DNA of 11,963 nucleotides from a virus. Position numbers and translations under genes: made by a program. Under the pieces are notes generated by a model, which was given only the letters and a program-made list of their open reading frames with translations, searched no databases and was not told where the DNA came from. The stretch is from UHGV virus genome UHGV-0046228; one strand, written 5' to 3'. Positions 6,570 to 10,131 of the stretch are shown piece by piece; the stretch's first letter is position 1; the number at the start of each line of letters is the position of its first letter.

Positions 6570-6865
6570 GCTGACACCCTCCCGTAAAACGCCAGTACAC
6601 GCTGCATCGCCGGACTGTTTCGGCACTCCTGAAATATTCCGTTGGTGCAGCTACGCGCGGTACCAGCCTGCTCTTCCGGCGTAGCCAGGCGATAAGTCAC
6701 CGTTCGCCAGACCTTGCTCACCCGGATAATTTTTCGAGACTTTTCCAGATCGATAGCGTTCTTCGTGATGCAGTTGATGGTCATGCCGCACTCTGTGGCC
6801 ACATCCTTCGCGGTGAAGGTCCGGTGCGTTTCGAGATAACGCAGAATTGCCTGCTTGCCTTTCAT
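6566..6865 (-). CDS. ren: Ren-like protein (lambda Ren, resistance to Rex exclusion)
   Basis: 99-aa translation MKGKQAILRYLETHRTFTAKDVA...KVWRTVTYRLATPEE...FQECRNSPAMQRVLAFYG is co-linear with lambda Ren as recalled; ATGA overlap with the P stop; sits directly after P as in lambda. Confidence 0.8.
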   Translation of the reverse strand: MKGKQAILRYLETHRTFTAKDVATECGMTINCITKNAIDLEKSRKIIRVSKVWRTVTYRLATPEEQAGTARSCTNGIFQECRNSPAMQRVLAFYGRVSA

Positions 6866-7656
6866 TGAATAAGCCCTCTCTCTTTCCCGCGCTGATACTC
6901 TTCCCAAAGCCATTGGGCCGGGGTGAGAGCGCCGAGAGTCGCCGCATTTGGCATGCACCCGAAGCTTTTTCCTTCCGGGTGATAACCGGCCTGACGGCTC
7001 ACGTGATTTGTCGGGATCACTTCATCAGAATTCTCGAGCGCCAGGACGGGGGATGGTATTTTTTCCCCACCAGCAACTTTCAGCGCCCATTCCTCAAGTT
7101 TTTTTGACGCGTATTTTTCAGTTTCAGCCTCGCTCAGCTGGCGCTGGTACATCGCTCTGCGCGTATCGGTCACAATCCAGTACATGACGTCATGAGACCA
7201 CGGGAAAGCTTCTGCTCCGCCGGTATGCAGCCCTTTTTCGCGGCTATACCGATGGAACTCATTCATCACATCAGCCAGGCCAATGCCAAGTACCGTGCCG
7301 CTATCCTTGCACCATTTGATGAATTGCCCCGGAGAAGGCCAGAAGGGTGATTCACTGGCGCGGGCATGCCGTACACCTGCGGAAAGTTGTTCGCGGGTGC
7401 GGATCCCATTCTCTGAAAACGCTGCGATCCACTGACGCTTTGCCGTTTTCTCGTCTGCGTCAGTTTTCAGGTTTGTCTGCGTAGACGCAGGGAAAATCTG
7501 CTTCAGCTGCCGAAAGAGAGAATCAACGAGGCTTTCCGCTTCGGGATTTATTACCTTCTGCTGGTCGGCGTTTCCGTTAGCCATTCTGGATAGCAGTGCC
7601 CCGTCACGCCCGTTAACTGCCTGCACAAGTTGGTTATTCACAGGAAGTCCTCCCAT
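6862..7656 (-). CDS. P: Replication protein P (DnaB helicase loader)
   Basis: 264 aa, co-linear with lambda P as recalled (FPAS, RRQWIAAFSENGIRTREQ, PFWPSPGQFIKWC, YWIVT); start overlaps the 3' end of the O-like gene. Confidence 0.9.
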   Translation of the reverse strand: MGGLPVNNQLVQAVNGRDGALLSRMANGNADQQKVINPEAESLVDSLFRQLKQIFPASTQTNLKTDADEKTAKRQWIAAFSENGIRTREQLSAGVRHARASESPFWPSPGQFIKWCKDSGTVLGIGLADVMNEFHRYSREKGLHTGGAEAFPWSHDVMYWIVTDTRRAMYQRQLSEAETEKYASKKLEEWALKVAGGEKIPSPVLALENSDEVIPTNHVSRQAGYHPEGKSFGCMPNAATLGALTPAQWLWEEYQRGKERGLIQ

Positions 7657-8372
7657 CCCTCGCGGCTGTTCCAGTGAGGCGTTTCCTGCTCAGCACGTCC
7701 ACGTTTAGCCAGCGGGTTAACCCTGGCATTCCGGATCCAGACTCTGAAAGCCGAATTCCAGTCGATTAGCTGCGTGCCACGGGAAAGGTGATAGTCCCGG
7801 AAGTTCAGCAGCTCAGTTTCAATGCTCACCCCCTTCTCGGCAGCCATAGCAATGTGATCTGCCGACGGCTTAAACAGGGGCGGGAATGGAATCTCCCCGT
7901 TTGGTGAAATCCCGATCCGCCGCTTAGCGGCTTCGCTCATAAAACCATCGCGCCCAGAGAGAGAGTTAGGTTCAGTGACTGGTTCAAAAGAGTGACTGGT
8001 TCTGGTGCCATCTGGTGGCACAGGGGGTGTGCAATCAGATGGCATAGGGTGTGCTTCTTCGTGGCATACCCCTGTGCAATTTAATGGCATAGGGGTGGCA
8101 TCTAATTTCAGGTAATACACATTTGACGTGTTACCTTTTCCGTTGTTGACGCCAACACGGTTCTCACGCCTGATAAGCCCCATTTCTTCAAGCGCATCAA
8201 TATGGTTACGAACAGCCGTTCTGCTGCATTCGCATTGGTCGGCGATATGTTGATACGAAGGCCAGCATTCGCCTTTATCGTTGGCGTTATCGGCCAACTT
8301 AATCAGGACGAGCTTACGCAGTGAGTTTCCCACTTTGACCCCCATTGCTTTCGCCATAAGTGACATGCTCAC
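7638..8372 (-). CDS. Replication initiator, O-like (N-terminal winged-HTH, ori iterons in the coding sequence, C-terminal P-interaction-like domain)
   Basis: 244-aa ORF; N-terminal HTH-like segment (SRTAVRNHIDALEEMGLIRRE); iteron repeats fall in a Pro/Thr-rich linker; followed by P. GTG at 8372 with GGAGGT 5 nt upstream, alternative ATG at 8366. Confidence 0.8.
   Translation of the reverse strand: MSMSLMAKAMGVKVGNSLRKLVLIKLADNANDKGECWPSYQHIADQCECSRTAVRNHIDALEEMGLIRRENRVGVNNGKGNTSNVYYLKLDATPMPLNCTGVCHEEAHPMPSDCTPPVPPDGTRTSHSFEPVTEPNSLSGRDGFMSEAAKRRIGISPNGEIPFPPLFKPSADHIAMAAEKGVSIETELLNFRDYHLSRGTQLIDWNSAFRVWIRNARVNPLAKRGRAEQETPHWNSREGWEDFL
8003..8100. repeat. Origin-of-replication iterons inside the O-like gene
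   Basis: Four related units spaced about 22 bp: TGGCACAGGGGGTGTGC, TGGCATAGGGTGTGC, TGGCATACCCCTGTGC, TGGCATAGGGGTGGCA, preceded by inverted repeat GTGCCA...TGGCAC and flanked by an AT-rich tract (8101-8130). Confidence 0.6.
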
Positions 8373-8389: not shown

Positions 8390-8418
8390 TTTACTCTCTT
8401 CGATTTACTTGGCATAAT
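8390..8418 (+). promoter_or_regulatory. Candidate promoter for an OOP-like antisense RNA
   Basis: Plus strand TTTACT (8390-8395), 17-nt spacer, CATAAT (8413-8418), in the intergenic region between the YdaT-like gene and the O-like gene, pointing opposite to them. Confidence 0.3.
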
Positions 8419-8423
8419 TGCCT

Positions 8424-8500
8424 CGCAATTGACTGACGTTTATTGCACCAGAAAGCTGTTGGTGTTCGAGCACCACAGCTTTCGCCATTTCTGTTGTTCT
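8424..8500 (+). ncRNA. Candidate OOP-like short antisense RNA (about 70 nt)
   Basis: Predicted start about 7 nt after CATAAT; ends at a 13-bp hairpin (GAAAGCTGTTGGTG / CACCACAGCTTTC, 8451-8483, one bulged T, 6-nt loop) followed by T-rich GCCATTTCTGTTGTTCTC, abutting the YdaT-like stop. Confidence 0.3.
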
Positions 8501-9042
8501 CACATAACCCCCAGCATCGATGTCACCATCGTCATCAGCGGCCCTACCTGCTCCGGCATGAGGCGAAACAATGACGCTATGCCCTCGCTTACCTCCTTCA
8601 TTTTCTGGTGCTCAGGCGCGTTCAGGAGAACGGCTTGCTTTGCTTCTGAACATTCCTTCATGGCAGATGCGATCAGCGACATGGTGTCGTTCTGCTGCGC
8701 CAGGCGTGTACGAAACTCAACAGGAAGAACAGACATGATTGCCGGGGTCAGTTCTCTAACGTTCTCGCGGTACTGATCGGAGTCGACGCGGTTATCCAGA
8801 AAGCGCAAAGGATTCTGGCGAGCCCTGCTGATGTCTTGCAGGAAGCTGACGGCGGTACCGCCCTGCTCCCGGTATTCGTTGATGATCAGCGCTGACACTA
8901 CGTCCTGATTGTCCAGGGACGACGACCATGCACGGACCGCATCGCGGATTTTGTCGTGACCTGGCTCCGCCTTAGGTTGAGCGCGGTTTATCATCGCTCC
9001 CGGGTGTATTCCGGTATTGTGTTGATACGCAAGTGAATGCAT
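8500..9042 (-). CDS. YdaT-like protein (Rac-type; occupies the CII position)
   Basis: 180-aa ORF downstream of the cro-like gene; segment IINEYREQGG...ELTPAIMSVLPVEFRTRL parallels E. coli YdaT as recalled; AAGGGA SD 5 nt upstream of ATG 9042..9040. Confidence 0.65.
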   Translation of the reverse strand: MHSLAYQHNTGIHPGAMINRAQPKAEPGHDKIRDAVRAWSSSLDNQDVVSALIINEYREQGGTAVSFLQDISRARQNPLRFLDNRVDSDQYRENVRELTPAIMSVLPVEFRTRLAQQNDTMSLIASAMKECSEAKQAVLLNAPEHQKMKEVSEGIASLFRLMPEQVGPLMTMVTSMLGVM

Positions 9043-9072: not shown

Positions 9073-9294
9073 TTAGGCGGCAAAGATACCTGGATATAGA
9101 ACTTCGCGAGGAAGTCCGGTTACTTCTTCGTATTTACGCATTTTTGTTACTGGAAGGCTGCCACCTCGCTTTTTAAGCATATTGATGGCCTGAGGCGTTA
9201 CGCCGACCTTTTCAGCAAGCACCTTTTGAGAGCCGCCCACTGCATTAATGGCTTTCTCAAGCGGGGTGCTGGCGTTGGATTTTTTGTTGATCAT
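9073..9294 (-). CDS. Cro-like DNA-binding protein (YdaS / Cro-CI HTH family)
   Basis: 73-aa ORF with HTH segment GGSQKVLAEKVGVTPQAINMLKKRG; divergent from the repressor gene; GGAGC SD 5 nt upstream. Confidence 0.8.
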   Translation of the reverse strand: MINKKSNASTPLEKAINAVGGSQKVLAEKVGVTPQAINMLKKRGGSLPVTKMRKYEEVTGLPREVLYPGIFAA

Positions 9295-9314: not shown

Positions 9315-9386
9315 AATCAACACCATGTTAATTCATGGCGTGGATTAAATCAACATTATGGTGATGGAAAAAATCCACATGTTGTT
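9315..9386. promoter_or_regulatory. Divergent operator/promoter region (OR-like) between cro-like and cI genes
   Basis: Three related sites: AATCAACAccaTGTTAATT (9315-9333), AATCAACAttaTGGTGAT (9348-9365), AATCCACAtgTTGTTT (9372-9387). Candidate pR on the minus strand: TTGATT (9353..9348), 17 nt, TAACAT (9330..9325), overlapping sites 2 and 1. Confidence 0.5.
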
Positions 9387-9411
9387 TACCATGCATGGAG
9401 CGGAGGGTTTT

Positions 9412-10131
9412 ATGAGCAGCATTTCTGAAAGAATTAAATTTTTACTGGCAAGGGAAGGCTTGAAGCAGCGGGATTTGGCTGAGGCTTTGTCGACTAGCCC
9501 ACAGACCGTCAACAACTGGATAAAAAGAGACGCGTTAAGTCGTGAGGCGGCGCAACAAATATCTGAAAAATTCGGTTATTCTCTTGACTGGTTATTAAAT
9601 GGAGAGGGTTCTCCAAAGAAGGATCTGGAGAGCAACATCCCGCCAGAGTCTGAGTGGGGAACTGTCGACGCTTGGGACAAAAATACCCCCCTACCTGACG
9701 ATGAGGTGGAAGTACCGTTTCTGAAGGATATCGAGTTTGCGTGTGGTGATGGGCGTGTTCATAGCGAAGATCATAACGGCTTTAAACTGAGGTTCTCCAA
9801 GGCAACGCTTCGCCGGGTAGGAGCTAACACAGATGGGTCTGGCGTTCTGTGTTTCCCGGCAACCGGTGACAGCATGGAGCCAATGATTCCAGATGGAACC
9901 ACTGTGGCTGTGGATACAAATAACAAACGCGTTGTCGATGGAAAACTTTACGCTATTGGACAAGGCGATGGTGGTGAAGGGCAACTAAAAAGAATTAAGC
10001 AGCTCTACAGGAAACCAGGCGGAAAGCTAATTATCCGCAGCTACAACAATGAGGCCTACCCTGATGAAGAAGCTGACATTGATGATGTTGAGATAATCGG
10101 CCGCCTCTTCTGGTACTCGGTATTGCTGTAG
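9412..10131 (+). CDS. CI-type prophage repressor (N-terminal HTH, C-terminal S24 LexA-like autopeptidase)
   Basis: Start at ATG 9412 (MSSISERIKF...) with GGAGG 5 nt upstream; HTH LKQRDLAEALSTSPQTVNNWIKR; S24 catalytic motifs GDSMEP (Ser) and LKRIK (Lys). Confidence 0.9.
   Translation: MSSISERIKFLLAREGLKQRDLAEALSTSPQTVNNWIKRDALSREAAQQISEKFGYSLDWLLNGEGSPKKDLESNIPPESEWGTVDAWDKNTPLPDDEVEVPFLKDIEFACGDGRVHSEDHNGFKLRFSKATLRRVGANTDGSGVLCFPATGDSMEPMIPDGTTVAVDTNNKRVVDGKLYAIGQGDGGEGQLKRIKQLYRKPGGKLIIRSYNNEAYPDEEADIDDVEIIGRLFWYSVLL

Follow-up and report, generated by a model that had tools for sequence, protein, structure and literature searches.

A probable iteron-type replication origin inside the coding sequence of an HTH_36-type initiator gene in a phi80-like prophage

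The DNA analyzed here (the window) is a stretch of 11,963 nucleotides (nt) of the virus genome UHGV-0046228, and it raised the question of whether a cluster of short repeats within a replication initiator gene at 7638 to 8372 is the origin at which that initiator acts. An earlier note had described four repeats of about 16 bp, spaced by about 22 bp, in the linker-coding part of an "O-like" gene next to an AT-rich stretch and had proposed a probable origin as in phage lambda. Our analysis indicated that the region from 7964 to 8139 is quite probably an iteron-type replication origin which lies inside the coding sequence of its own initiator and would set the specificity of that initiator. The anatomy of the repeats, constraint at the level of DNA, covariation of recognition helices with half-sites and the module context were all observed in the analysis. 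The features of the gene and of the region were as follows.

7638-8372, minus strand: replication initiator gene, 244 amino acids (HTH_36, PHROG 1032 and gene context)
8073-8091: dyad iteron U1, TATGCCATTAAATTGCACA in gene sense
8050-8068: dyad iteron U2, TATGCCACGAAGAAGCACA
8028-8046: dyad iteron U3, TATGCCATCTGATTGCACA
8004-8022: dyad iteron U4, TGTGCCACCAGATGGCACC, with arms ending 2 nt before the invariant element
8069-8072 (GGGG), 8047-8049 (CCC) and 8023-8027 (CCCCC): G/C runs of 3 to 5 bp between the dyads
8092-8101: partial, less conserved half-site and C-run, ATGCCACCCC, at the promoter-proximal edge of the array
7976-8003: invariant 28-bp element, AGAACCAGTCACTCTTTTGAACCAGTCA, promoter-distal to U4 and starting 2 nt after the dyad arms
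7964-7973: degenerate third copy of the repeat within the element, GAACCTAACT
8100-8139: AT-rich patch, GC content of 0.30 versus 0.53 for the gene, encoding the wing of the DNA-binding domain (codons 78 to 91), GKGNTSNVYYLKLD

The four repeats were present on the plus strand where the earlier note had placed them, at 8016 to 8032 (TGGCACAGGGGGTGTGC), 8040 to 8054 (TGGCATAGGGTGTGC), 8062 to 8077 (TGGCATACCCCTGTGC) and 8085 to 8100 (TGGCATAGGGGTGGCA), and their starts were 24, 22 and 23 bp apart, a regularity far beyond chance. In the unit at 8062 to 8077, the center was inverted and the G-run had become a C-run. The 16-mer was nevertheless shifted in phase: it ran from the last part of one dyad across a G/C run into the first part of the following dyad. 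A better parse consisted of four 19-bp dyads of the form TRTGC-N9-GCAYM (gene sense), with starts 23, 22 and 24 bp apart, or about two helical turns. This parse was preferred because the spacer within the dyads was constant at N9, whereas the G/C run internal to the 16-mer varied from 3 to 5 bp, and because other subtypes of the family had dyad centers fixed at 5 bp and inter-dyad spacers of 6 to 9 bp. The 16-mer was disfavored as a binding unit on the same grounds, and the constant N9 favors binding of dimers to the dyads.

Within the window, TRTGC-N9-GCAYM occurred only as U1 to U4, giving 7 strand-matches against 0.34 expected, and none of 200 shuffles reached 7. The window had seven TGGCAYA words, four of them within 76 bp, and in a repeat search, no direct-repeat family other than the dyad array reached three copies in the window. 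The array covered codons 94 to 123, at the beginning of a disordered linker and between the HTH_36 domain and a C-terminal DnaT-like match. The label "linker-coding" was thus right, since residues 96 to 160 had predicted local distance difference test scores (pLDDT) below 50 in an AlphaFold model and formed a disordered stretch.

Relatives were collected in two ways. An exact 24-mer just downstream of the array (CCAGTCACTCTTTTGAACCAGTCA) was used as a query and returned at least 120 viral contigs, nearly all of which encoded the initiator family of the window. A second set was chosen by N-terminal peptide patterns, independently of the element DNA, and comprised 80 loci at one genome per species, with hosts including Enterobacterales, Pseudomonas, Aeromonas, Photobacterium, Vreelandella and Parashewanella. 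The window had all the features by which the family was defined, namely, near-invariant first 47 residues, a dyad array and then AGAAYCAGTMACTCTYYTGAAYCAGTCA at 2 nt past the last dyad. When dyads like the one nearest the element were counted in 151 distinct arrays, three to five were present in 133, with a mode of four and a spacing peak at 21 to 24 bp. In the arrays, dyads occurred at a density of 3.89 per 200 bp, about 280 times the 0.0137 per 200 bp counted over 1.2 Mb of DNA flanking them.

A comparison of 21 distinct close relatives detected variable third codon positions at fractions of 0.59 in the N-terminal domain, 0.77 in the C-terminal domain and 0.29 in the linker, and the variable fractions of linker codon positions 1 and 2 were 0.32 and 0.18 (Fisher p, about 1e-8). 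The linker was without codon phase, since positions 1 and 2 varied about as much as position 3, and hence was not evolving as ordinary coding sequence. Among 19 distinct close relatives, the half-sites and the G/C runs were fixed and the dyad centers (TTAAAT, CGAAGAA and TCTGAT) were variable. A unit with an inverted center kept the DNA dyad but encoded another peptide (CTGVCH versus TPPVP), and G-runs flipped to C-runs both between units and between relatives. Overall, these comparisons showed that the constraint on the array acts on the DNA and not on the peptide, and the "peptide repeats" of the linker appear to be by-products of the DNA sites.

In 161 distinct genes, the class of the recognition helix tracked the class of the half-site almost perfectly, in the following pairs.

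CS(K/R)(S/T)AVR helix with the TRTGCC half-site
IS(K/R)RSV helix with the GTGCA/GTGAA half-site
IGRSTVK helix with the GGGGCA half-site
IDRSTVR helix with the GTAGGCC half-site

Mosaic genomes never separated the DNA-binding domain from its array. The association is consistent with direct recognition of the half-site by the helix but does not amount to proof because physical linkage of the two is a confounder.

The initiator gene was then identified from its product and its neighbors. The longest open reading frame (ORF) started with GTG at 8372 and encoded 244 amino acids, and database relatives started at the ATG at 8366 and had 242 amino acids (MSLMAKAM…). Most other subtypes start with MSM-x-LM, and the true start of the window gene is uncertain by two codons. 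An N-terminal winged helix of the Pfam family HTH_36 was detected at residues 20 to 67 (E value, 3.7e-14), a weak DnaT-like Pfam match was found in the C-terminal part at residues 167 to 219, and PHROG 1032 ("replication initiation protein") matched the full length, from residue 1 to residue 242 (E value, 1.2e-60). An AlphaFold 2 model contained a winged helix with a beta-hairpin wing (pLDDT of about 80 to 88) and a helical C-terminal domain. The match to PHROG 1032 and the gene context, after CI/Cro/YdaT-like immunity genes and before a lambda-P-type loader, identify the 244-amino-acid gene as the replication initiator. The description "O-like" did not carry over to its protein family: no match to Pfam PF04492 (Phage_rep_O) was obtained at an E value of 0.01 or less, whereas phi80 gp15 matched at 6e-25, and an hhalign comparison of the family N-terminal profile with phi80 gp15 gave a probability of 7.9%. 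The initiator shows no detectable homology to lambda O and is O-like by analogy only. A sequence search found no solved structure among its relatives, and a Foldseek search with the predicted N-terminal fold returned only generic winged-helix matches.

The family is large, with 4559 protein clusters at 90% identity (E values of 1e-10 or less), and nearly all of the named matches listed among these clusters were called just "helix-turn-helix domain-containing protein." Its members have near-invariant first residues (about 47), a variable recognition helix and wing, a linker variable in length and sequence, and unrelated C-terminal domains. The C-terminal domain switched along with the downstream gene, which encoded lambda P, a DnaB-like helicase, a DnaC/IstB-like loader or a Toprim-helicase. 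This joint change is the logic expected of an initiator with one half for DNA-binding specificity and one half for helicase recruitment.

The 28-bp element, which thousands of prophages conserve, had not been recognized in the earlier note. It contains two GAACCAGTCA repeats, 17 bp apart, and relatives have two to four copies of GAACCNGTCA. With up to 7 substitutions allowed, the element was found in 75 of the 80 loci of the independently chosen genome set, and its distance to the last dyad was the same in the family members examined. Over the element codons AGA ACC AGT CAC TCT TTT GAA, 71 distinct genes spanning the Gammaproteobacteria from Enterobacterales to Pseudomonas had 1 synonymous and 74 nonsynonymous differences, the latter including T to I, F to S/L/I and H to N. 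In the same 71 genes, the invariant peptide RKLVLIKLADNA used every synonymous codon freely. These two results place the constraint on the nucleic acid and not on the peptide, and the constraint persisted in GC-rich Pseudomonas, where the element codons are disfavored. On the family average, the element was the most AT-rich 25-bp stretch around the array and yet was 57% AT.

The element is also a joint of mosaic recombination, with breakpoints at its edges. One pair of loci (L130/L131) was identical up to the distal edge of the element and unrelated beyond it, and two other pairs (L104/L193 and L041/L079) had nothing in common upstream, where their iteron types differed, and reached about 95% identity from the proximal edge onward. 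We tentatively suggest, with a likelihood that at best approaches even, that the element is an unwinding or helicase-entry segment of the origin, or a site for a conserved factor, that also serves as a homology patch for the exchange of modules. Its constant 2-nt gap to the last dyad suggests that it works together with the array.

Homogenization by recombination alone is the main rival to a functional role of the element as DNA. The element could be conserved as a homologous-recombination joint that frequent exchange keeps uniform, or for a peptide motif, and have no part in an origin, an explanation that fits four independent pairs in which the mosaic breakpoints coincide exactly with its two edges, as well as the recognizable peptide that it encodes, (T/P)RTSHSFEPV. 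The peptide version fails on the synonymous and nonsynonymous counts over the seven codons, set against the free codon usage for RKLVLIKLADNA, and recombination alone would have to outrun mutation over thousands of lineages and in GC-rich hosts; the constant distance to the last dyad again suggests joint action with the array. We therefore regard an element with no part in the origin as rather unlikely. A broader version of the functional interpretation, which we put forward as a possibility with the balance of probability against it, is that the element is a universal origin core, independent of iteron specificity, as well as the fixed recombination joint between modules. Such a core may be where the strands unwind or the helicase enters, or it may be bound by a conserved host factor or by the invariant initiator residues 1 to 47, and it may be written into the coding sequence of thousands of prophages of Enterobacterales, Pseudomonas, Aeromonas, Vibrionaceae and relatives. 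The joint may then separate specificity modules (DNA-binding domain and iterons) from recruitment modules (C-terminal domain and P, DnaC, DnaB or primase-helicase).

The AT-rich stretch that had been likened to that of lambda does adjoin the array, at a GC content of 0.30, but it is promoter-proximal, unlike the promoter-distal tract of lambda and phi80, and it encodes the wing of the DNA-binding domain. Third-position AT was 0.64 in the patch versus 0.44 for the gene (n = 14), and the family-wide values were 0.50 at the patch and 0.39 in the rest of the N-terminal domain (151 genes, phylogenetically non-independent). The patch is a weak candidate for an unwinding region, because its AT-richness is mostly driven by the encoded amino acids while its third positions are somewhat enriched in AT, and the evidence for such a role is equivocal.

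From these observations, we infer binding, unwinding and firing at 7964 to 8139 in the following form. Dimers of the N-terminal winged helix would bind the four 19-bp dyads and, as these recur every 22 to 24 bp, or about two helical turns, would lie on one face of the DNA. They would there build a nucleoprotein complex like the lambda O-some and strain the adjacent DNA, with strand opening most likely at the 28-bp element (7976 to 8003) and less likely at the AT-rich patch (8100 to 8139). The C-terminal domain would recruit the neighboring lambda-P-type loader, which would bring the host DnaB. The half-site sequence would set the specificity between initiator and origin and, if so, would also decide replication-based incompatibility or exclusion.

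Several results weigh against an origin at this site. The literature search found no experiment on binding or origin activity for the initiator family, and no rep_origin feature was annotated in the three related phage records examined. Plasmid-deposited records with the family were mostly phage-sized (about 40 to 50 kb) or larger, 46 of 50 were non-mobilizable and none was small, so that these records gave no evidence of a minimal replicon. The association of helix and half-site is confounded by shared ancestry as well as by linkage. Neither flank of the array is strongly AT-rich, with GC contents of 0.43 in the promoter-distal segment from 7964 to 8003 and of 0.30 only in the patch, where the AT-richness is owed largely to the encoded amino acids. 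The sense RNA of the dyads had a lower folding energy than shuffled sequences (z = -3.06, with 2 of 200 shuffles as good). This last result could point to repeats that act as mRNA hairpins and modulate how the initiator and P message is translated or how stable it is, but the z value follows trivially from inverted repeats, and the stems would be only about 5 bp with 9-nt loops. The same half-site recurred in all units, which is typical of protein sites and unlike independent stems; half-sites were identical across relatives while loops varied, with no compensatory changes; and an Rfam scan of the whole window gave no match. The RNA-structure reading was rejected, and we give it next to no credence.

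The repeats might also reflect nothing more than a repetitive Pro/Gly-rich peptide linker, a tandem repeat at the protein level without a function as DNA. Short repeated peptides are indeed encoded (TPMP, HPMP and TPPVP), the linkers of relatives are also repetitive and of low complexity, and the region is predicted to be disordered. Such a linker is made very improbable by the lack of codon phase, with third positions about 2.5-fold less variable than those of the flanking domains, and by the dyad of unit 3, which is kept with a different peptide, as well as by the flips of G-runs to C-runs. The half-sites and the N9 geometry are moreover constant around variable centers, and the class of the half-site goes with that of the recognition helix. 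Alternatively, the dyads could be bound by protein as an autoregulatory operator, or to block transcription through the replication operon, with the origin located elsewhere. This reading would suit a protein whose N-terminal domain resembles the winged helices of transcription factors (matches to GntR, MarR and FadR) and which databases mostly label as a helix-turn-helix protein, and it would agree with the modest AT content of both flanks. However, the 12-kb window contains no second iteron-like array, and the position, copy number and phasing of the dyads agree with those of proven lambdoid origins (PMC3349717). The C-terminal domains covary with helicases and loaders, and a DNA-constrained element at a constant distance from the array would be needless for an operator. 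An operator with no origin function is accordingly judged improbable. As a proposal for an iteron origin in the linker that sets specificity, the earlier note is well supported by these comparisons of related sequences; its family assignment, AT-rich flank and repeat phase needed revision.

Comparison of the family members also yielded observations on the two ends of the protein. Residues 1 to 47 (window 8232 to 8372), MSMxLMxKAMxxKVGNPLRKLVLIKLADNAxDxGECWPSYQHIADQCE, were near-invariant across subtypes that differ in recognition helix, iterons and C-terminal domains. The constraint here is on the protein, since the codons vary freely, and the invariance suggests that these residues meet a partner that is itself conserved; a dimer interface, a host protein and the invariant DNA element are possible examples. 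Three of the four lambda-P-paired initiators found (those of the window, L018 and L116) shared the C-terminal tail W(N/D)(S/T)xE(G/A)WxDF(L/I)-stop (window 7638 to 7700), whatever the iteron type or middle domain, and this tail is a candidate P-binding motif; the fourth, L041, ended in …SWADDLGGL. In L018, as in the window, the initiator stop overlapped the P start by 19 nt.

In three loci, from Erwinia rhapontici (L175), Pseudomonas bharatica (L188) and Erwinia tracheiphila (L200), the DNA-binding domain, dyads and element were all kept but the 28-bp element was read in another frame (…PEPVTLLNQS). The proteins of L188 and L200 stopped within or just past the element (134 and 119 amino acids), and that of L175 continued to 219 amino acids; these loci could be pseudogenes or the result of sequencing errors, or they could be natural variants reduced to the DNA-binding domain. 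This other-frame reading prompted the idea that a programmed -1 frameshift at UCU UUU G takes ribosomes to a UGA inside the element and yields a truncated protein limited to the DNA-binding domain; the idea was rejected because the run of four U residues is missing from 28 of 71 genes. Among the plasmid records, ten were from Arsenophonus nasoniae (H58 to H67), nine of them of 28 to 48 kb and one of 104 kb, and there were further matches in the plasmid collection (H45, H47 and H41), with E. coli, Klebsiella and Edwardsiella records of 41 to 45 kb. The phage-sized records may be phage-plasmids or excised phage genomes caught in assemblies.

The window comes from a phi80-like temperate prophage, of which it is the early-right region. 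The phi80 DNA of DH5alpha-type strains covered 49% of it at 97.5% identity, and a prophage of E. coli ABWA45 covered 65%. The genes around the initiator were as follows.

9358-10131, divergent from the minus-strand genes: CI-like S24 repressor gene
9073-9294, minus strand: Cro/YdaS-like gene
8500-9042, minus strand: YdaT-like gene
6862-7656, minus strand: lambda-P-family helicase loader gene (Pfam PF06992, E value of 3e-58; PHROG 109, "P-like helicase loader")

The Cro/YdaS-like and YdaT-like genes are followed on the minus strand by the initiator gene and, directly downstream, by the loader gene, whose start overlaps the initiator stop by 19 nt. Compared with the phi80 region of DH5alpha (L125) and the ABWA45 prophage (L126), the backbone was phi80-like at about 97% identity, a level found in Q, ninG, ninE, the phosphatase gene and the YdaS/YdaT-type immunity region. 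On this backbone, the replication module has been swapped for the HTH_36 initiator and a different P allele, a clear case of replication-module mosaicism. Phi80 itself was rejected as the source of the module since, although it has the backbone in common with the window, its gp15 genuinely belongs to the lambda-O family and its iterons are unrelated.

On the plus strand at 8390 to 8418, between the YdaT-like and initiator genes, there was a sigma-70-like promoter (TTTACT-17-CATAAT with TG in front of it); it is antisense to the early operon, and its position and orientation match those of lambda pO/oop. A terminator-like hairpin followed about 200 nt downstream on the plus strand (8619 to 8632), and the promoter overlapped a lone TGGCATA word at 8410 to 8416. 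Promoter-like matches near this position were at chance level, with 1 seen and 1.4 expected.

A full-text literature search, which included the DNA string and the peptide of the element, found no description of this origin or element, with many papers of subscription journals outside the search, and a paper on the replication regions of Shiga toxin (Stx) phages was silent on an HTH_36-type initiator. A rule relating helix class to half-site class would predict replication specificity, cross-exclusion and incompatibility among prophages, and it reaches the prophages of E. coli, Klebsiella, Salmonella and Pseudomonas and some Stx2 phages. The initiator and P together make up a compact candidate replicon of about 1.6 kb for the building of vectors. 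Linker repeats that arise as by-products of DNA sites matter for annotation and for analyses of nonsynonymous to synonymous substitution rates (dN/dS), and a very large family now mostly filed under an uninformative helix-turn-helix label in public databases is concerned. For a sequence within an ORF, the element is under unusually strong non-coding constraint; it also shows at which point replication modules recombine and makes the place at which such origins melt a directly testable question. If the universal-core proposal is true, phage origins would gain a new design principle, namely, a sequence-specific core that is not AT-rich and that selection maintains as DNA within an ORF.

Three known systems invite comparison. 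In the RepA_N plasmids of Gram-positive bacteria (pSK41 and pAD1), the origin repeats are inside the repA coding sequence. The window would resemble them in that its initiator presumably binds repeats in the central part of its own gene, and weak Foldseek matches to staphylococcal RepA N-terminal domains were obtained (4pql, 4pt7 and 5kbj). These were generic winged-helix matches with E values of about 1e-2, sequence homology was absent, and the hosts and helicase-recruitment partners differ.

The iteron origins of plasmids such as pSC101, R6K, RK2, P1 and F work with winged-helix Rep proteins, and their unwinding element contains repeated 13-mers. Rep proteins bind the single-stranded DNA of that element (PMC4081077). 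The DNA-binding domain of the window initiator is also a winged helix, and its phased sites lie next to short direct repeats (GAACCAGTCA, 2 to 4 copies) that possibly form an unwinding or single-strand binding element; in the window, this repeat is present twice and once more as a degenerate copy beside the array, conserved at the DNA level and moderately AT-rich. The differences are that the window dyads are presumably bound by dimers, whereas the plasmid iterons are direct repeats bound by monomers, and that the candidate origin lies inside a coding sequence, with a candidate unwinding element of about 43 to 50% GC. No enrichment of DnaA boxes or integration host factor (IHF) sites was detected by the iterons: TTWTNCACA had 19 matches against 19.3 expected, the array region had none better than one mismatch, and IHF consensus matches were at chance level.

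The closest parallels were with lambda and phi80, in which the origin is an iteron array inside the linker of the initiator (PMC3349717, PMC7466680) and the AT-rich tract comes after the last iteron, on the promoter-distal side (PMC3349717). The iteron array of phi80 was visible in its own sequence. The window initiator is outside the lambda-O family, and the window has no 38-bp promoter-distal tract of high AT content but has the moderately AT-rich invariant element in its place; the only clearly AT-rich patch is on the promoter-proximal side, where it codes for part of the DNA-binding domain. We know of no lambda counterpart of the 28-bp element. The likenesses extend from the location of the candidate origin, in the interdomain linker of the initiator gene, to its size, with four dyad sites of about 18 to 19 bp and an array of 88 bp in the window and about 87 bp in lambda. 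In both, the N-terminal domain is the presumed binder and travels with the iterons as one specificity module, and the C-terminal domain is paired with a lambda-P-family loader encoded next door. The logic is thus the known one of a lambda-type embedded origin, and what is new is its use with an unrelated initiator, without the AT tract on the lambda side and with an invariant element beside the array.

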